From a virus (lineage: Duplodnaviria > Heunggongvirae > Uroviricota > Caudoviricetes), in the IMG/VR virus record IMGVR_UViG_2690316285_000012: DNA of 10,000 bases. One strand, written 5' to 3'. Position 1 is the stretch's first letter; each line of letters begins with the position of its first letter. The translations under genes were made by a program, and so were the position numbers. The notes under the pieces were generated by a model. It was given only the letters and a program-made list of their open reading frames with translations. It made no database searches and had not been told where the DNA came from. Of the stretch, positions 750 through 9,308 are shown one piece after another.

Positions 750-1187
750 NNNNNNNNNNNNNNNNNNNNNNNNNNNNNNNNNNNNNNNNNNNNNNNNNNN
801 NNNNNNNNNNNNNNNNNNNNNNNNNNNNNNNNNNNNNNNNNNNNNNNNNNNNNNNNNNNNNNNNNNNNNNNNNNNNNNNNNNNNNNNNNNNNNNNNNNNN
901 NNNNNNNNNNNNNNNNNNNNNNNNNNNNNNNNNNNNNNNNNNNNNNNNNNNNNNNNNNNNNNNNNNNNNNNNNNNNNNNNNNNNNNNNNNNNNNNNNNNN
1001 NNNNNNNNNNNNNNNNNNNNNNNNNNNNNNNNNNNNNNNNNNNNNNNNNNNNNNNNNNNNNNNNNNNNNNNNNNNNNNNNNNNNNNNNNNNNNNNNNNNN
1101 NNNNNNNNNNNNNNNNNNNNNNNNNNNNNNNNNNNNNNNNNNNNNNNNNNNNNNNNNNNNNNNNNNNNNNNNNNNNNNNNNNNNNNN
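750..1187. other. N-masked block (438 nt); further blocks at 1459-1728, 2591-3258, 5302-5714, 5885-6180
   Basis: Runs of n in the sequence. Any ORF segment shown as X in the track is unknown sequence. Confidence 1.
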
Positions 1188-1422: not shown

Positions 1423-3450
1423 TCAATTAACGATTGAATCTCCATCACCTGCTCCAGANNNNNNNNNNNNNNNNNNNNNNNNNNNNNNNNNNNNNNNNNN
1501 NNNNNNNNNNNNNNNNNNNNNNNNNNNNNNNNNNNNNNNNNNNNNNNNNNNNNNNNNNNNNNNNNNNNNNNNNNNNNNNNNNNNNNNNNNNNNNNNNNNN
1601 NNNNNNNNNNNNNNNNNNNNNNNNNNNNNNNNNNNNNNNNNNNNNNNNNNNNNNNNNNNNNNNNNNNNNNNNNNNNNNNNNNNNNNNNNNNNNNNNNNNN
1701 NNNNNNNNNNNNNNNNNNNNNNNNNNNNCTGAGGTAAAATTGCCGCTAAAATCCTTCTGTCCTGTTCCTTCGATGTTGTCCGCTGAACAAGCACACATTC
1801 AGATTTTGTCACAAGGAAACCCTGTTGTGGGGTTATATCGATATAGGGAACATGATTTTTTCTGTCTGCACTAAAACGAAAACCAGCTGAAGTTATTGAT
1901 TCCGCCCAGACTAATGGGTAGCTATTTTTTCCTTTCGTCGTACGCAACTGCGACTTAAATCGATTCCAGACTAACTGACCTGTAGAGACTGAGTATCCCA
2001 GATCAGCTAAACGCGTAGACATCTGTTTTAATACATTAAGAAAACAGGCATCATCTTTAACGCGTGGCAAAAGCCACGTTGCTCCACCTTTTTCTATATC
2101 AACATTACCTATTTTCTCAATTTTTGCTTTGTTCAACCCCTTAGGGACAAGTGAGGATACCTGGGCCCGAACTTTATGTTCTCCCGCCTTGAATGCTGTC
2201 AACATTGTTTCCTGGAGAACATCGTCAAAGACCCCATCCCTGTCAGTGACGAAATCAAGGGCATACGGAGTAGTTTTTTCGGTCAAAAGGGTTCGCAGCG
2301 CGGTGAAATACTGCCCACCAAGAAAAGAAGTTGGCGTAAGAAATGCAATAACTCCTGTTTTCTCTTTAACCATGCGAACAGCTAAGTCGGTGAACAATCC
2401 ATATAGATTTGCATGACCAAATAACGAACGAGAATATTTTTCTCTCGTTTTAATATCGAGAGTGACACGTCCGTAAGGCGGATTCCCTACCACAAGATCA
2501 TAACCAGAAAATTTATCTTGCTGAAGCGCATCAGCAACAATAATTGTATCTTCAGGCAATCTACGTTTTACCTTTACACATAGTGGCATTNNNNNNNNNN
2601 NNNNNNNNNNNNNNNNNNNNNNNNNNNNNNNNNNNNNNNNNNNNNNNNNNNNNNNNNNNNNNNNNNNNNNNNNNNNNNNNNNNNNNNNNNNNNNNNNNNN
2701 NNNNNNNNNNNNNNNNNNNNNNNNNNNNNNNNNNNNNNNNNNNNNNNNNNNNNNNNNNNNNNNNNNNNNNNNNNNNNNNNNNNNNNNNNNNNNNNNNNNN
2801 NNNNNNNNNNNNNNNNNNNNNNNNNNNNNNNNNNNNNNNNNNNNNNNNNNNNNNNNNNNNNNNNNNNNNNNNNNNNNNNNNNNNNNNNNNNNNNNNNNNN
2901 NNNNNNNNNNNNNNNNNNNNNNNNNNNNNNNNNNNNNNNNNNNNNNNNNNNNNNNNNNNNNNNNNNNNNNNNNNNNNNNNNNNNNNNNNNNNNNNNNNNN
3001 NNNNNNNNNNNNNNNNNNNNNNNNNNNNNNNNNNNNNNNNNNNNNNNNNNNNNNNNNNNNNNNNNNNNNNNNNNNNNNNNNNNNNNNNNNNNNNNNNNNN
3101 NNNNNNNNNNNNNNNNNNNNNNNNNNNNNNNNNNNNNNNNNNNNNNNNNNNNNNNNNNNNNNNNNNNNNNNNNNNNNNNNNNNNNNNNNNNNNNNNNNNN
3201 NNNNNNNNNNNNNNNNNNNNNNNNNNNNNNNNNNNNNNNNNNNNNNNNNNNNNNNNNNTACGATGCTGAAGCAGTATGAGCGGGCATGCATCAACCTTGA
3301 CTGCCCGGTTTTGTAATTGCCCGCATAACCTTTGGCCATGGCTTTACAAGTTTGATATCTTTCCAGATTAGAAAACTCATTATCTGTAAAAAAATCAAAA
3401 TGTTGCACATTCATAATGTAAAATCCTAATGTATCAAACATGCGGGCCAT
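1423..3450 (-). CDS. N6-adenine DNA methyltransferase (gamma-class, Eco57I/TaqI-like) with target-recognition region; long form about 675 aa if continuous through masks
   Basis: Catalytic motif IV DLVVGNPPYG visible at 2460-2490 region. One uninterrupted frame connects the visible segments 3259-3450, 1729-2590 and 1423-1458 across both masks. Region is AT-rich relative to its neighbours. Confidence 0.75.
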   Translation of the reverse strand: MARMFDTLGFYIMNVQHFDFFTDNEFSNLERYQTCKAMAKGYAGNYKTGQSRLMHARSYCFSIVXXXXXXXXXXXXXXXXXXXXXXXXXXXXXXXXXXXXXXXXXXXXXXXXXXXXXXXXXXXXXXXXXXXXXXXXXXXXXXXXXXXXXXXXXXXXXXXXXXXXXXXXXXXXXXXXXXXXXXXXXXXXXXXXXXXXXXXXXXXXXXXXXXXXXXXXXXXXXXXXXXXXXXXXXXXXXXXXXXXXXXXXXXXXXXXXXXXXXXXXXXXXXXXXXXXXXXXXXXXXXXXMPLCVKVKRRLPEDTIIVADALQQDKFSGYDLVVGNPPYGRVTLDIKTREKYSRSLFGHANLYGLFTDLAVRMVKEKTGVIAFLTPTSFLGGQYFTALRTLLTEKTTPYALDFVTDRDGVFDDVLQETMLTAFKAGEHKVRAQVSSLVPKGLNKAKIEKIGNVDIEKGGATWLLPRVKDDACFLNVLKQMSTRLADLGYSVSTGQLVWNRFKSQLRTTKGKNSYPLVWAESITSAGFRFSADRKNHVPYIDITPQQGFLVTKSECVLVQRTTSKEQDRRILAAILPQXXXXXXXXXXXXXXXXXXXXXXXXXXXXXXXXXXXXXXXXXXXXXXXXXXXXXXXXXXXXXXXXXXXXXXXXXXXXXXXXXXXXXXXXXXSGAGDGDSIVN

Positions 3451-5268: not shown

Positions 5269-5884
5269 TCACAACTCCCGGAAAGCTGACATTTGAACGC
5301 CNNNNNNNNNNNNNNNNNNNNNNNNNNNNNNNNNNNNNNNNNNNNNNNNNNNNNNNNNNNNNNNNNNNNNNNNNNNNNNNNNNNNNNNNNNNNNNNNNNN
5401 NNNNNNNNNNNNNNNNNNNNNNNNNNNNNNNNNNNNNNNNNNNNNNNNNNNNNNNNNNNNNNNNNNNNNNNNNNNNNNNNNNNNNNNNNNNNNNNNNNNN
5501 NNNNNNNNNNNNNNNNNNNNNNNNNNNNNNNNNNNNNNNNNNNNNNNNNNNNNNNNNNNNNNNNNNNNNNNNNNNNNNNNNNNNNNNNNNNNNNNNNNNN
5601 NNNNNNNNNNNNNNNNNNNNNNNNNNNNNNNNNNNNNNNNNNNNNNNNNNNNNNNNNNNNNNNNNNNNNNNNNNNNNNNNNNNNNNNNNNNNNNNNNNNN
5701 NNNNNNNNNNNNNNTACCCATCGCCGCTGCAAGGTGATTTTTCCCGGTGCCGGTTTTACCGCTGAACACAAAATTCGTGCACCCGGTCATCAGTTCGTCA
5801 GCTATGGATTTGGCCTGGCTCAGCGCGTATTTTTGCCCGTCGTTCTGCACCTGATAATTCGCAAACGAGCATTTGCTGTGCAGA
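5269..5884 (-). CDS. DnaC-family AAA+ helicase loader (phage P-analog / YdaV-like); 5' end in masked block
   Basis: Visible stretch KCSFANYQVQNDGQKYALSQAKSIADELMTGCTNFVFSGKTGTGKNHLAAAMG closely parallels the E. coli DnaC Walker A region (FSGKPGTGKNHLAAA). Frame stays open upstream into mask 5885-6180; same frame ends at 5269 after mask 5302-5714. Confidence 0.75.
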
Positions 5885-6180
5885 NNNNNNNNNNNNNNNN
5901 NNNNNNNNNNNNNNNNNNNNNNNNNNNNNNNNNNNNNNNNNNNNNNNNNNNNNNNNNNNNNNNNNNNNNNNNNNNNNNNNNNNNNNNNNNNNNNNNNNNN
6001 NNNNNNNNNNNNNNNNNNNNNNNNNNNNNNNNNNNNNNNNNNNNNNNNNNNNNNNNNNNNNNNNNNNNNNNNNNNNNNNNNNNNNNNNNNNNNNNNNNNN
6101 NNNNNNNNNNNNNNNNNNNNNNNNNNNNNNNNNNNNNNNNNNNNNNNNNNNNNNNNNNNNNNNNNNNNNNNNNNNNNNNN

Positions 6181-7157
6181 AACCAGGGGTTTTCAAAATT
6201 CCGGTCCGGCCCAAAAAACGTCGTCGCTCGCTGAACAAATTCCGTTCCCGCTTTCCCGGTCGCCGCCAGGTATCTCGCGTAACGCCTCACACCATCCAGC
6301 ATGGTCTCTGGTGGCACCCCCTCGCGCAATCTGGCCTTCCAGGCACTGAATGCGGATTTCTTCGGGTTTGCCCCGGCACGCAACGGGTATTCCCGCCAGA
6401 CCTGTTCGAACACATCCGGATAATCCACTCGTCCCACAGGCTGCCCGGTGTTTTCCGGGGCTACCCGATCGGCTTCCCGCTGAATGGCGGAATCGGCTTC
6501 AGGCTGCTGCAGTTGGAGTGATTGCTCCGGCCTTGCGGTCATCACCTGCTGCACAGCGCCCGAATCGGCTTTCAGCGCATACGCTGAATCGGCTTCCGGT
6601 GTCGAGCCTGCTGGCTGACCAGGATTGACGGTCTGAACATCCCCTGCCTGGTTCGTGGCGTTTTTTACGCCATGGACCATAGTGTTTTGATCTTCTTTAT
6701 CTGTATCTTTATCTGTATCTGTCGTGACTCGTCGTGACATGTGCGTGACATTTCGTGACGCGCCGTGACAATCGCCATTTTGTTCCCGCTTTCTTTCCCT
6801 CTCTCGCTGCGCCCTCTTGCGCTCTGCAGGAGATTTTGCGGTTTGCGAAATATTGCCGTTGTCCTCTTTAAGCACCTGGCGTTTTTCCCATCCAGTGATT
6901 AAATCACCATCAAGTACCCGCCCCTGCATCGTCTGCAAAATTGAATCAATTACCTCTTCTGTCACGTCGAGCGCACTTGCCAAATCTTCTGTCGTGACAT
7001 CAATGTGACCTCGCGTGACATTTCGTGACGCGCTCACCAGGAGGTGGATATACACTGCCATCACTGTTGCAATTGGCTGCCCTGACACCCTGGCAATTGT
7101 TCGCCACTTAGGGTCATTTGGCATGTCATGCCATAATCTGAGCCAGGCGTTAGCCAT
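6181..7157 (-). CDS. Phage replication initiator / replisome organizer (lambda O analog); 3' end in masked block
   Basis: ATG at 7157 preceded by GAGGTGA RBS (ORF-track GTG at 7163). N-terminal HTH-like region MANAWLRLWHDMPNDPKWRTIARVSGQPIATV. Iteron repeats lie inside the gene and it sits immediately upstream of the DnaC-like gene. Confidence 0.7.
6694..6717. repeat. Perfect tandem duplication of 12-bp unit TCTTTATCTGTA (AT-rich), adjacent to the iterons
   Basis: 6694-6705 and 6706-6717 are identical. Encodes the low-complexity TDKDTDKD linker of the initiator on the minus strand. Confidence 0.7.
6721..6769. repeat. Iteron cluster 1: five CGTGAC repeats at roughly 10-11 bp spacing (putative origin)
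   Basis: CGTGAC at 6723, 6733, 6744, 6754, 6764, about one helical turn apart, flanked by the AT-rich tandem repeat at 6694-6717. Confidence 0.6.
6961..7033. repeat. Iteron cluster 2: four (C/T)GTGAC repeats at 10-11 bp spacing plus one inverted copy
   Basis: CGTGAC/TGTGAC at 6993, 7004, 7014, 7024; inverted GTCACG at 6961-6966. The 21-mer GCGTGACATTTCGTGACGCGC at 7013-7033 is identical to 6743-6763. Confidence 0.6.
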
Positions 7158-7228
7158 ACTCACCTCTTCTGATACCGAATCTTTTTACTCACGAGTTGCC
7201 GGGAGCGATTCGATATGGCTATTGTCAG

Positions 7229-7654
7229 TCAATGTACTGCCACAGCATTTCCTGCCGGGCCACCACGGTTCATCTGATTGAAACCGGCGATTGCCACTGC
7301 GACAAAATCATCAGCGTCTCTCACCAGTCGTTCATGCGTCTCCACCAGTTCCCGAAAATAAGCTGAACTGTGGCTGCGCATTCGAGCCACCAGCGGAGGT
7401 GGCATTGCCCTTTCGATCGCAGGTAACAACGCCTGAATTTTTTCAACAGCGTCAGGGGTGTCTTTATCCAGCCAACGGAAAATCTTTTGGGTGTTGAGAT
7501 AAAGCGTGTTGTGCTTGCTGTCGTTATGCAGAACCGGAAACGTCATTCCCAGTTCGAAATAAACCCTGGTTATTTCAGCTGCCGGAACTTTTTCACCGTC
7601 CGGATGCGCCCAGGCTTTCATCGCCATGCGGATGTGTTCATGCTTGATTTTCAT
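7229..7654 (-). CDS. ydaT: YdaT-like protein (proposed cII analog / toxic prophage regulator), 141 aa
   Basis: ATG at 7654 overlaps the upstream gene stop (ATGA). N-terminus MKIKHEHI and the size match recalled Rac YdaT. Position is Cro-like gene, then this gene, then replication genes. Confidence 0.65.
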   Translation of the reverse strand: MKIKHEHIRMAMKAWAHPDGEKVPAAEITRVYFELGMTFPVLHNDSKHNTLYLNTQKIFRWLDKDTPDAVEKIQALLPAIERAMPPPLVARMRSHSSAYFRELVETHERLVRDADDFVAVAIAGFNQMNRGGPAGNAVAVH

Positions 7655-7914
7655 GAATCAACCCCCGCCGATGGTTGTGTGTTAGCCTGAAACTCAGCAG
7701 GCAAGCCGTCAGTTGGGTTGGGGTAGGTTTTACTGTCAATCTCATGTGGGGTCACCACCCATCCCGTTGCTTCACACCAACGTAATATTTTTTCTCCTGT
7801 AAGTTTTGCACGCCCCGTTATAACGTGGCTGACCATCCCTTGGGATGCGCCAACAATCTCAGCAAATGAACTCTGGGTTATATGAAAATGATGCAAATAT
7901 TCTCCAAGATTCAT
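7651..7914 (-). CDS. ydaS: Cro-like HTH protein (YdaS-like), 87 aa from ATG 7914
   Basis: HTH segment SSFAEIVGASQGMVSHVITGRAKLTGEKI. Divergent from the repressor gene and first gene of the rightward operon. ATG 7914 has an AGGGCGG RBS; ORF-track TTG start at 7941 is the alternative. Symbol assigned by synteny with Rac. Confidence 0.6.
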   Translation of the reverse strand: MNLGEYLHHFHITQSSFAEIVGASQGMVSHVITGRAKLTGEKILRWCEATGWVVTPHEIDSKTYPNPTDGLPAEFQANTQPSAGVDS

Positions 7915-7948
7915 AATCCGCCCTATGTGATGTGTTACCAATGCATAA

Positions 7949-7990
7949 TTAATAGCACTGTTATTTTTAAAAGTAAATAGTGATGCTATT
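7949..7990 (-). promoter_or_regulatory. OR-like region: two 15-bp palindromic operators (7951-7965 AATAGCACTGTTATT; 7976-7990 AATAGTGATGCTATT) overlapping a PR-like promoter
   Basis: Minus-strand -35 TTTACT (7972-7977), 17-bp spacer, extended -10 TGcTATTAA (7949-7957). The operators overlap the -35 and -10 elements. Confidence 0.55.
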
Positions 7991-8018
7991 TCAAAGTGAT
8001 TAGCAATCTTATTAGAAT
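7990..8018 (+). promoter_or_regulatory. Candidate PRM-like promoter for the repressor gene (-35 TTCAAA 7990-7995, -10 TAGAAT 8013-8018)
   Basis: 17-bp spacer. Predicted start site falls at or just before the ATG at 8026, implying a leaderless or near-leaderless mRNA. Abuts operator 7976-7990. Confidence 0.3.
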
Positions 8019-8025
8019 TGGATGT

Positions 8026-8526
8026 ATGAAAAGAAAATCATTGTCAGACACCGACCTCAACGCCGCCAGAAGACTGAAAGAAATCTGGATGGCAAAGAAA
8101 TCTCAGTTGGGATTGACTCAGGAACGTGCGGCGGAAATTATGGGGTTTTCAACACAAGGGGCGGTAAGTCACTACCTAAATGGTCAAACCCCACTAAACC
8201 TTGAGGCTGTTCTAAAGTTTGCTGGCTTACTGAAAGTTCCCCCTGAGTCAATCAGGCCAGACATGGTAGATTTGCTGCAAATTGCAAGGATGTATTGTCG
8301 AGAACCACAGCAAGATAACATAGTCGCATTACCAGCAGACACAGAACAAACAGAGGATGAACTACCGTTTGCCGTAGAGCCGATGGAACGAGATTTAATC
8401 CATACGTTCAGAGCTTTTCCGAAAGAAGATCAAGAACACATGCTTCAGGAGATGAAAGATAAAAAAGAATCAATGGATCGTACGGTTGCGCGGTGGTTAG
8501 CTGCACAAAAAGGCCGTCGCGCCTAA
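8026..8526 (+). CDS. paaR2: Cro/CI-family prophage repressor (RacR/PaaR-type), 166 aa from ATG 8026
   Basis: HTH segment LGLTQERAAEIMGFSTQGAVSHYLNG. Divergent from the Cro-like gene across an operator-containing intergenic region and first gene of a three-gene operon with antitoxin and ParE toxin. No S24 peptidase domain is evident. ORF-track GTG start 7996 is the alternative. Symbol by architecture only. Confidence 0.65.
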   Translation: MKRKSLSDTDLNAARRLKEIWMAKKSQLGLTQERAAEIMGFSTQGAVSHYLNGQTPLNLEAVLKFAGLLKVPPESIRPDMVDLLQIARMYCREPQQDNIVALPADTEQTEDELPFAVEPMERDLIHTFRAFPKEDQEHMLQEMKDKKESMDRTVARWLAAQKGRRA

Positions 8527-8545
8527 ATCAGAGGAGATATGTAAA

Positions 8546-8740
8546 ATGAGTACAGTCCTTTCCCCAATGGTTTCAGAATTTGAGACAGTTGAGCAAGAAA
8601 ATAGTTACAACGAATGGCTGCGGGCCAAAGTAGCAGCAAGCCTCGCGGATCCCCGCCCGGCGATTCCGCATGATGAGGTAATGGCGGAAATGGAACAAAT
8701 TATTGCCCAAATTGCTGCTGCAACTCACAGAGGTGAATAA
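8546..8740 (+). CDS. paaA2: Small antitoxin (PaaA2/ParD-like), 64 aa
   Basis: GAGGAG RBS 9 nt upstream. Stop TAA overlaps the toxin ATG (TAATG). Small acidic protein immediately upstream of a ParE-family toxin. Symbol by architecture and size. Confidence 0.6.
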   Translation: MSTVLSPMVSEFETVEQENSYNEWLRAKVAASLADPRPAIPHDEVMAEMEQIIAQIAAATHRGE

Positions 8741-9030
8741 TGTTACCCGTTTTATGGCTACCATCTGCTCGTGATGATTTGCGCCAGATCGTAGCCTACA
8801 TAGCTAAAGAAAATCCCGCGGCAGCACGCAGAATGAAAATTCGAATTGAAACATCCGTTTTGCCGCTCACAGAGCATCCTTACCTGTATCCTCCAAGCGA
8901 GCGAGTTCTTGGTCTTCGTGAAATTGTAACTCATCCTAACTACATCATCCTTTACCGAGTAACAGCATCAAGCATAGAAGTAGTAAATATTGTGCATTCT
9001 CGAAGACAGTATCCAGGCAAAAACAGTTAA
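8740..9030 (+). CDS. parE2: ParE/RelE-superfamily toxin, 96 aa
   Basis: Typical ParE pattern: W...A..DL..I..YIA.ENPAAA.R....I, then YIILYRV and VVNIVH near the C-terminus. Translationally coupled to the upstream antitoxin. Confidence 0.75.
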   Translation: MLPVLWLPSARDDLRQIVAYIAKENPAAARRMKIRIETSVLPLTEHPYLYPPSERVLGLREIVTHPNYIILYRVTASSIEVVNIVHSRRQYPGKNS

Positions 9031-9044
9031 TTATTCCCGCCGAC

Positions 9045-9070
9045 AGAACCACCTTAGGGTGGTTTTTTCT
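9045..9070 (+). terminator. Rho-independent terminator after the repressor-TA operon
   Basis: Stem AACCACC (9047-9053) / GGTGGTT (9058-9064), loop TTAG, followed by a T-run 9063-9068. Lies 15 nt after the parE stop. Confidence 0.6.
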
Positions 9071-9086
9071 TGCCCCAACAAAAAAC

Positions 9087-9129
9087 AATAGCGATGCTAT
9101 TTACATCAAAAAAATAATGATGCTATTGT
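9087..9129 (+). promoter_or_regulatory. OL-like region: two 15-bp palindromic operators (9087-9101 AATAGCGATGCTATT perfect; 9113-9127 AATAATGATGCTATT) overlapping a PL-like promoter
   Basis: -35 TTTACA (9100-9105), 18-bp spacer, extended -10 TGcTATTGT (9121-9129). Same operator-promoter architecture as the 7949-7990 region, in the opposite orientation relative to the repressor gene. Confidence 0.55.
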
Positions 9130-9308
9130 TTCAGGCGTCAACCCACCCCGCCCCACAGAATGCAGGGCAATACTTCGAGTTACCAGACAGTGGTCAGGGG
9201 TTAAGTAGCCAGCCCGAGGCGTAAGAACATGACGGCAGGGTTCAATCTTTAACTATGCAGCAGGTTTTTTGTTCCGCCACCCCGGCGTTAAGGGGAAATG
9301 AGGTCAGC

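Follow-up and report, generated by a model that had tools for sequence, protein, structure and literature searches.

Probable repressor and Cro operators on either side of a repressor–toxin–antitoxin operon in a lambda-like prophage immunity region

The immunity region and its paired palindromes

The DNA considered here is a 10,000-nucleotide stretch from a virus of the Caudoviricetes (IMG/VR record IMGVR_UViG_2690316285_000012; "the window" below refers to this whole stretch, with positions counted from its first letter), in which a repressor–toxin–antitoxin operon is bordered at each end by a pair of 15-bp palindromes. To the left of the first pair, on the − strand, lie a replication initiator (a 447-amino acid (aa) open reading frame (ORF) at 5820-7163), a YdaT-family CII-like regulator, and a small Cro-like helix-turn-helix (HTH) protein. 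Between the pairs, on the + strand, are a 166-aa repressor, a PaaA2-family antitoxin, and a ParE-family toxin, and to the right of the second pair follows a DUF1391/ydfA gene, also on the + strand. An E. coli locus of 98% identity carries the same genes in its RefSeq annotation, and further right ydfB, ydfC, dicB, and an exonuclease. This gene content and order point to a lambdoid immunity region with the toxin–antitoxin pair in the position of lambda rexAB. In all likelihood it belongs to a lambdoid prophage closest to those of Shigella sonnei and E. coli, in which the 166-aa repressor has OR and OL as its operators; repressor and Cro would very probably bind at the four palindromes, in a lambda-like prophage switch that includes a toxin–antitoxin pair.

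The palindromes follow the consensus AATA(G/A)(C/T)-N3-(G/A)(C/T)TATT (equivalently AATARY-N3-RYTATT) and occur as four copies in two pairs. The first pair comprises an OR1-like operator at 7951-7965 (AATAGCACTGTTATT) and an OR2-like operator at 7976-7990 (AATAGTGATGCTATT), whose centers are 25 bp apart and which lie 75 and 50 bp, respectively, before the repressor ATG, offsets that recur in all relatives. The second pair comprises an OL2-like operator at 9087-9101 (AATAGCGATGCTATT) and an OL1-like operator at 9113-9127 (AATAATGATGCTATT), 26 bp apart from center to center. The original prediction gave exactly these positions and spacings, and both stand; the half-sites that it named, AATAGC and GCTATT, are both perfect only in 9087-9101, while each of the other three sites has one half-site mismatch.

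A search of both strands with the degenerate pattern AATARNNNNRYTATT matches these four sites only, where dinucleotide-preserving shuffles lead one to expect 0.04 and none of 200 shuffles reaches the observed count, and the exact consensus with up to three mismatches allowed returns the same four places alone (0.19 expected). A weight matrix was also built from the sites of relatives, leaving out the window's own sites and all third-position sites. It scores the four palindromes at 19.4-22.6 bits (21.1 for OR1, 20.5 for OR2, 22.6 for OL2, and 19.4 for OL1), followed by 7999-8013 as fifth-best at 10.8 bits, with the rest of the window at 4.7 bits or less; sites of at least 10.8 bits number 0.005 per shuffled 10-kb sequence. 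Because five runs of N mask 2,085 bases of the window (750-1187, 1459-1728, 2591-3258, 5302-5714, and 5885-6180), the statement that nothing else in the window matches applies to the approximately 7.9 kb of readable sequence. ORF calls and motif scans across the five N runs are unreliable, including part of the replication-initiator ORF.

Both pairs coincide with predicted promoters. The PR-like promoter, read by eye at 7949-7977 on the − strand, combines a −35 of TTTACT (7977-7972), a 17-nt spacer, and the extended −10 TGcTATTAA (−10 at 7954-7949), and is missing from the promoter-scan list because position 6 of its −10 is not T. The PL-like promoter, found by the scan at 9100-9129 on the + strand, combines TTTACA (9100-9105), 18 nt, and TGcTATTGT (−10 at 9124-9129), with TG before the −10. 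OR1 overlaps the −10 and spacer of PR and OR2 its −35, just as OL2 overlaps the upstream edge of the PL −35 and OL1 the extended −10; in both modules the −35 contains the end of the distal operator, and the TGcTATT of the extended −10 comes from the proximal one. Since the operators overlap these two elements, a protein bound to them would exclude RNA polymerase. The same promoter layout had been claimed for both pairs, and this is confirmed with the addition that the modules are inverted relative to each other: a repeat search finds the OR and OL modules to be inverted copies. They do flank the repressor–toxin–antitoxin operon, as predicted, and the promoters face as proposed, PR leftward to cro, the ydaT/cII-like gene, and the replication genes, and PL rightward to ydfA and the small early-left genes. 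In an alignment of PR and PL from five lineages the −35 and −10 positions are conserved, and AATA, TATT, and the −35 are invariant.

Repeats with this composition might be nothing but a duplicated promoter cassette, or host-factor or UP-like AT-rich elements that no phage regulator binds, as the modules include the −35 and −10 hexamers, are AT-rich, and would be repeated in sequence by promoter duplication alone. Such an origin does not account for the dyad symmetry, which is kept in every copy across four genera whereas the non-symmetric centers and spacing tracts drift, nor for OR3, a third copy whose offset is conserved and whose promoter, PRM, is another one. Motif identity, moreover, switches with the recognition helices of repressor and Cro and not with promoter or host, and we consider a bare promoter duplication, or host-factor or UP-like elements, very unlikely.

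The cro–repressor intergenic region spans 111 bp (7915-8025), and the sites within it overlap the predicted divergent promoters PR and PRM. The PRM-like promoter, found by the promoter scan at 7990-8018 on the + strand (TTCAAA, 17 nt, TAGAAT), points at the repressor gene, and both of its hexamers are conserved in 23 distinct OR variants. OR2 abuts the PRM −35, and its center falls at about −43 relative to the predicted PRM start; in lambda, OR2 is centered at −42. The PRM −10 ends 7 nt before the ATG at 8026, which puts the predicted start at or next to the A of the ATG, and so short a distance predicts a leaderless repressor mRNA. Precedents are lambda cI and paaR2, the latter shown to be leaderless (PMC8630535).

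A candidate weak OR3-like operator at 7999-8013 (ATTAGCAATCTTATT) covers the spacer of PRM and reaches the edge of the −10. It lies 23 bp from OR2, so that the OR center spacings are 25 and 23 bp; those of lambda are 24 and 23. The best site within 45 bp before the ATG has the same offset (−26 to −29) in six of six relatives checked, with third-position scores of 15.4 bits for Citrobacter and 13.5 for Rouxiella. Given this extra site and its conserved offset in relatives, OR is probably tripartite as in lambda. The immunity switch of paired sites originally proposed thus retains its OR and OL modules and acquires a weaker third OR site that had been missed; at OL, the weight-matrix scan of the window detects no third site above background.

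The repressor gene (8026-8526, + strand), with a start identical to that in the RefSeq annotation of a related locus (L001), encodes an N-terminal HTH domain resembling that of lambda CI, followed by a linker and then a PaaR-type C-terminal module. Residues 2-81 match the N-terminal domain of lambda CI, including its basic N-terminal arm (PDB 1lmb, E=2.9e-9), and the matches to 1lmb, 1rio, and 3bdn (E=3e-9 to 1e-8 over residues 2-81/90) all end at or before residue 90. In the 1lmb alignment the repressor residues E33 and E37 fall on lambda E34 and D38, which we take to be the positive-control residues of the lambda protein. Pfam reports HTH_3 and HTH_31 only, and no S24 peptidase domain was found in the repressor. 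The last 44 aa of the protein match the C-terminus of PaaR2 at 52% identity (E=5e-15), and homology is confined to them: considered as the upstream regulator of a PaaR–PaaA–ParE system, the protein is PaaR-homologous in this tail alone, its head being lambda-CI-like and not PaaR-like. By analogy with PaaR2 the tail presumably supplies oligomerization.

The Cro-like protein (87 aa, 7651-7914, − strand; Pfam HTH_3, PHROG 35) is encoded by the first gene of the PR operon, with the same coding sequence annotated at L001, and shares 38% identity over 48 aa with the repressor HTH (E=5e-7). The recognition helices are nearly identical, SQGMVSHV in Cro and TQGAVSHY in the repressor, and the latter is invariant across the repressor family. 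Because such resemblance is usual for repressor/Cro pairs with common operators, the Cro-like protein almost certainly uses the same palindromes, which amends a prediction that had named the repressor. One might go further and regard the sites as primarily Cro operators, with the 166-aa protein regulating other things or binding other sequences, for Cro has an HTH of its own, and each of the four genera has a Cro orthologue inherited together with the motif. The near-identity of the repressor's own recognition helix speaks against this, as does the use of the same operators for both proteins in lambda, 434, P22, and CP-933P (PMC8630535), and OL would have no purpose for Cro alone in the prophage state. 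A Cro-only function seems to us quite improbable, and binding by Cro is better seen as a complement to binding by the repressor than as its rival.

Downstream of the repressor gene, after a gap of 19 bp, comes the antitoxin gene (8546-8740, + strand, 64 aa; Pfam PF21217, 3e-23; PDB 3zbe PaaA2, 1.4e-23), which overlaps by one base (TAATG) with the toxin gene (8740-9030, + strand, 96 aa; Pfam PF05016, 1.8e-17). This packing is consistent with a single repressor–paaA–parE transcription unit. A timm-like intrinsic terminator at 9046-9072 (+ strand; hairpin and U tract, −15.1 kcal/mol, z=−2.94) is the strongest hairpin-plus-U-tract candidate of the operon and would end it before OL, and equivalent hairpins occur upstream of OL in Yersinia and Rouxiella.

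Palindromes and repressor heads among relatives

Searches of genomes and viral contigs with the head domain yielded 57 loci whose heads are 59-100% identical. In nearly all of them the palindromes stand at −75 and −50 from the repressor ATG, the −75 site having a degenerate left half in Yersinia and Rouxiella, and a second palindrome pair lies just past the terminator of the repressor operon. This second pair is found approximately 1,050-1,090 bp from the ATG in relatives with paaA–parE (E. coli, Shigella), approximately 915-950 bp from it in Citrobacter braakii, which has a tandem-head repressor and no toxin–antitoxin genes, and approximately 520-560 bp from it in Yersinia frederiksenii and Rouxiella aceris, which have repressors of 153-156 aa and likewise no toxin–antitoxin genes. 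Because relatives without these genes keep the sites, the sites follow the repressor head and Cro and not the toxin–antitoxin genes. Comparison of this kind supports the earlier assignment of the palindromes to the 166-aa repressor, in that the motif tracks the lambda-CI-like head in four genera and other heads go with other operators. With heads of 39-43% identity (e.g., L071-75) go operators of the lambda type, TATCACCGC, in the same layout of three sites and a leaderless start, while PaaR1 and PaaR2, which share only the tail of the repressor, have their own operators at both OR and OL.

The same comparison bears on whether the palindromes are autoregulatory operators of the toxin–antitoxin pair, bound by the PaaA–ParE complex in place of an HTH protein. 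The sites do flank the paaA–parE operon, and a classical type II antitoxin binds palindromes located at its own promoter (PMC8630535). The PaaA2-family antitoxins, though, are without a DNA-binding domain (Pfam PF21217, PDB 3zbe, PMC8630535), and CP-933P and CP-933M have homologous paaA–parE genes but different operators. With the sites also preserved at the same offsets in Citrobacter, Yersinia, and Rouxiella, the toxin–antitoxin complex was rejected as the binder, and we regard its involvement as extremely improbable.

In an alignment of 23 distinct OR sequences by fixed offset, no variation is seen in the promoter hexamers or in the outer bases of the half-sites, and the operator centers are among the most variable columns. 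Among E. coli OR regions that are near-identical elsewhere, the OR2-like site (7976-7990; the −50 site in L022-L070) has a hotspot of variation in its central 3-5 bases, between fixed flanks, with the variants GATGC, GATAC, ATCAC, ATTAC, ACTAC, GCCAC, ACCAC, ACTGC, and ATCGC; this could reflect either neutral drift of uncontacted bases or affinity tuning. In the 319,727 bases of family loci, only six copies of the 8-base core AATA-N7-TATT fall outside OR and OL.

The exact operator-plus-−35 pattern AATAGCNNNGCTATTTAC is present at no fewer than 80 loci in viral contigs. Among the matches listed, 23 of 80 encode the head, at 36-53 or 1,048-1,078 bp, and the other 57 encode no repressor homologue, which is consistent with chance for a 15-base pattern in a large collection; the enrichment is informative, and a match alone does not identify a locus. 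These matches, together with the AT-rich character of intergenic DNA, are what would favor an origin of the window's palindromes by chance. Against it stand four places where 0.04 are expected, the fixed spacing within pairs, and the offsets conserved in the 57 related loci, and with the shuffles, the offset conservation, and the weight matrix all opposed, we count chance as already refuted and give it next to no credence.

This immunity type is present in 72 of 5,426 complete E. coli genomes, each of which contains at least 80% of the 1.9-kb region, and the N-terminal 61-mer of PaaR2 is found in 593 complete E. coli genomes. No deposited phage with this repressor at 60% identity or more was found by tblastn, the best matches being lambda-type CI proteins at 31%, and megablast matched the flanks alone. 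A full-text literature search on PaaR2 and PaaR1 found no description of this immunity type, and what it yielded for PaaR1 was confined to papers on PAAR proteins of type VI secretion systems.

Comparison with CP-933P, CP-933M, and lambda

The experimental reference for this architecture is CP-933P, in which PaaR2 and YdaS bind the 97-bp intergenic region, as established by electrophoretic mobility shift assays, DNase I footprinting, 5′ RACE, and gfp fusions (Jurenas 2021; PMC8630535). The two proteins repress PR, PRM, and also PL, which has an operator set beyond paaR2–paaA2–parE2; the locus is bistable, and PaaR2 is octameric in solution (PMC8630535). The window resembles CP-933P/Sp12 of E. 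coli O157:H7 in the succession of replication genes, ydaT, a cro-like gene, OR, repressor, paaA, parE, OL/PL, and early-left genes, in the −35/−10 design shared by PL and PR with operator sets at both, and in a short leaderless-type PRM directly before the repressor ATG. Both repressors are without S24 and have the 44-aa C-terminal module in common, the YdaT operator consensus is identical, and homology at the DNA level, with 76-93% identity, extends to ydaT, paaA, parE, and the PL leader.

The two differ in the parts that would confer specificity of recognition: the head of the repressor is unrelated, being lambda-CI-like in a protein of 166 aa here as opposed to the 123-aa PaaR2, and the Cro-like protein is without detectable similarity to the YdaS of CP-933P. 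The operators are of the AATAGC-N3-GCTATT type here and GTTTAGTAA-type repeats (GTTTAGT type) in CP-933P, with two OL sites in place of the three reported there and an intergenic region of 111 bp in place of 97 bp. BLAST against CP-933P and CP-933M leaves exactly two unshared islands, one comprising cro, OR, and the repressor head and the other OL/PL, whereas ydaT, the repressor tail, paaA, parE, and the PL leader are common to the window and both prophages.

CP-933M (Sp4) harbors paaR1–paaA1–parE1, named as a homologue from Hallez 2010 (PMC8630535). It has the same architecture with duplicated OR/OL operators, and 76% DNA identity to the window from the repressor tail through paaA and parE into ydfA. 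PaaR1, unlike the repressor of the window, is a 133-aa protein with a different HTH head, and its operators are ACTGT-N9/10-ACAGT within A/T tracts; these differences make CP-933M heteroimmune with the window, and identity of the 166-aa repressor with PaaR1, as represented by the 133-aa protein of Sakai Sp4, was rejected on the same features. The duplicated operator–promoter modules of Sakai Sp4/CP-933M (L092 7375-7394 and 8410-8428) have the ACTGT-N9/10-ACAGT motif in A/T tracts and then an identical TTTTTTATTGT, and no description of the duplicated OR/OL modules of the PaaR1 locus was found in the literature consulted.

With lambda the window shares a homologous N-terminal repressor domain, an OR2 that abuts the PRM −35, a repressor mRNA predicted to be leaderless, and a tripartite OR of comparable center spacing. 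The stretch from the repressor to OL/PL contains cargo genes and a terminator, in the place of lambda's rexAB and timm, and the sharing of operators by Cro, probable here, is a further likeness. In contrast to lambda, the S24 autopeptidase/oligomerization domain is missing, OL has two sites instead of three, the operators are 15 bp long and of another sequence than the 17-bp TATCACCGC type, and the role of CII falls to an unrelated protein of the YdaT family.

The C-terminal module of approximately 45 aa (repressor residues ~118-166, window 8377-8523; FxAFPxEDQxxMLxEMKxKKESMxxxVARWLAAQKGRRA) is common to repressors with at least three unrelated heads, in proteins of 166, 132-133, and 123 aa (P0031, P0043, and P0053; L005 2501-2872; L092 7962-8363). 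It looks like a portable oligomerization cassette that replaces the S24 domain of CI. Relatives with tandem heads (P0013-P0023, 240-255 aa; L006 3001-3723) consist of a lambda-CI-like head, a complete PaaR1-like head, and the common C-terminal module. PaaR1-type ACTGT...ACAGT sites were not found within 3 kb of the Citrobacter tandem-head repressors, where only AATA...TATT operators occur, and the second head might serve immunity in trans against a second phage type.

Conservation among these heteroimmune prophages extends to either side of the switch. The YdaT-family regulator (141 aa, 7229-7654, − strand; Pfam YdaT_toxin, PHROG 163 'CII-like activator') has approximately 79-81% DNA identity to the ydaT genes of CP-933P and CP-933M. 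An exact YdaT operator at 7644-7661 (TTGATTTTCATGAATCAA) spans the cro stop and the ydaT start as an analogue of the PRE region, and is the sole zero-mismatch YdaT-operator match in the window. It is identical to the footprinted YdaT consensus TTGATTN6AATCAA, which in CP-933P is located at the end of ydaS (PMC9986795), and this sequence identity implies a PRE-type establishment circuit that would be conserved among heteroimmune prophages.

On the other side, upstream of ydfA, a conserved PL leader of approximately 160 nt (9139-9308, + strand) begins with CAACCCACCCCGCCCCACAGAA in E. coli prophages of three immunity types, and its segment 9139-9298 is 93% identical to CP-933P despite unrelated adjacent operators (counterparts at L005 3485-3645 and L092 ~7035-7300). 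The query flanks find matches in more than 4,400 E. coli genomes. An Rfam scan of the whole window at E≤1 yielded no family for the leader, the sole hit being a spurious mir-331 far away, and a structured RNA near PL was rejected as unsupported, the fold of 9136-9262 (z=+0.66) not surpassing those of shuffled sequences. Neither an N gene nor a nut site was recognized after PL, and a nut-/put-like or processing role of the leader is possible but unsupported.

Toward the left end of the window an Eco57I-family methyltransferase-like ORF (1423-3450, − strand) adjoins BsuBI/PstI restriction endonuclease ORFs, one for the N-terminal domain (682-1359) and one for the catalytic domain (114-704), both on the − strand. 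This suggests a PstI-like restriction–modification cargo in the PR operon; the endonuclease looks split into two ORFs, in a region interrupted by the N runs 750-1187, 1459-1728, and 2591-3258.

A proposed switch and its place in the repressor family

Dimers of the repressor would bind the 15-bp palindromes through the lambda-CI-like N-terminal HTH domain. On OR1 and OR2 they would cover the −10 and −35 of PR and turn off cro, the ydaT/cII-like gene, and the replication genes, and on OL2 and OL1 they would cover PL and silence ydfA and the early-left genes. The position of OR2, abutting the PRM −35 at about −43, is the lambda geometry for positive autoregulation, and repressor bound there may stimulate PRM, from which a leaderless repressor–paaA–parE transcript would arise, with paaA–parE co-expressed with the repressor as cargo in the rexAB position. 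The weaker OR3 over PRM would allow negative autoregulation and could be the preferred entry point for Cro, and competition of the Cro-like protein with the repressor for the same sites would give a bistable switch of the lambda type. YdaT, acting on its own operator at the cro/ydaT junction, would drive PRE-like establishment transcription. By analogy with PaaR2, the PaaR-type tail may provide cooperativity and possibly looping between OR and OL over approximately 1.1 kb. Since there is no S24 domain, induction is not expected to proceed through RecA-stimulated self-cleavage. The sites with their statistics and conservation, their co-variation with the head, and the gene identities are observations; binding itself, the sequence in which sites fill, PRM activation, looping, and a leaderless start are steps that we infer.

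Several points weigh against this interpretation. For this variant, the case for binding by the repressor is comparative, and with a head unrelated to that of PaaR2 the experiments on CP-933P transfer by analogy of layout only. The promoters PR and PRM are predicted at the level of consensus matches, and the −10 of PR breaks the rule of the scanner. OR3 is a weak match, and part of its conservation could stem from the overlapping −10 of PRM. Oligomerization and looping are suggested by 52% identity over 44 aa. The outer half-sites were used to collect the site compilation, so their invariance there is partly circular, which does not apply to the alignments at fixed offset from the ATG. The prophage, finally, may be defective, with a switch that no longer controls a lytic cycle.

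The architecture is one already known from CP-933P, and no new kind of mechanism is revealed; what is new is the operator specificity, which makes the locus a heteroimmune variant. We would put forward, as a tentative view with the balance somewhat against it, that the locus represents an undescribed immunity group within a modular, SOS-independent repressor family, in which the PaaR-type C-terminal module of approximately 45 aa is joined to interchangeable heads and each head is matched by its own OR/OL and Cro. The heads of that family would, with the same reservation, be the lambda-CI-like form, PaaR1, PaaR2, and the tandem forms of 240-255 aa. As an addiction module, paaA–parE might protect the immunity cassette from being replaced through recombination.

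The finding provides a concrete operator consensus and promoter map for an immunity type in E. coli, with related forms in Shigella, Citrobacter, Yersinia, and Rouxiella, and it adds a third, heteroimmune head to the CP-933P finding that a lambda-type switch has paaA–parE within it. As this head is recognizably homologous to lambda CI, unlike that of PaaR2, knowledge of lambda structure and function (the N-terminal arm, the positive-control patch, and the OR2 geometry) becomes testable on a repressor with a different tail. If this variant retains the lambda geometry for PRM activation and the acidic patch and relies on a non-S24 tail for cooperativity and looping, it would amount to a natural domain-swap experiment on the lambda switch.

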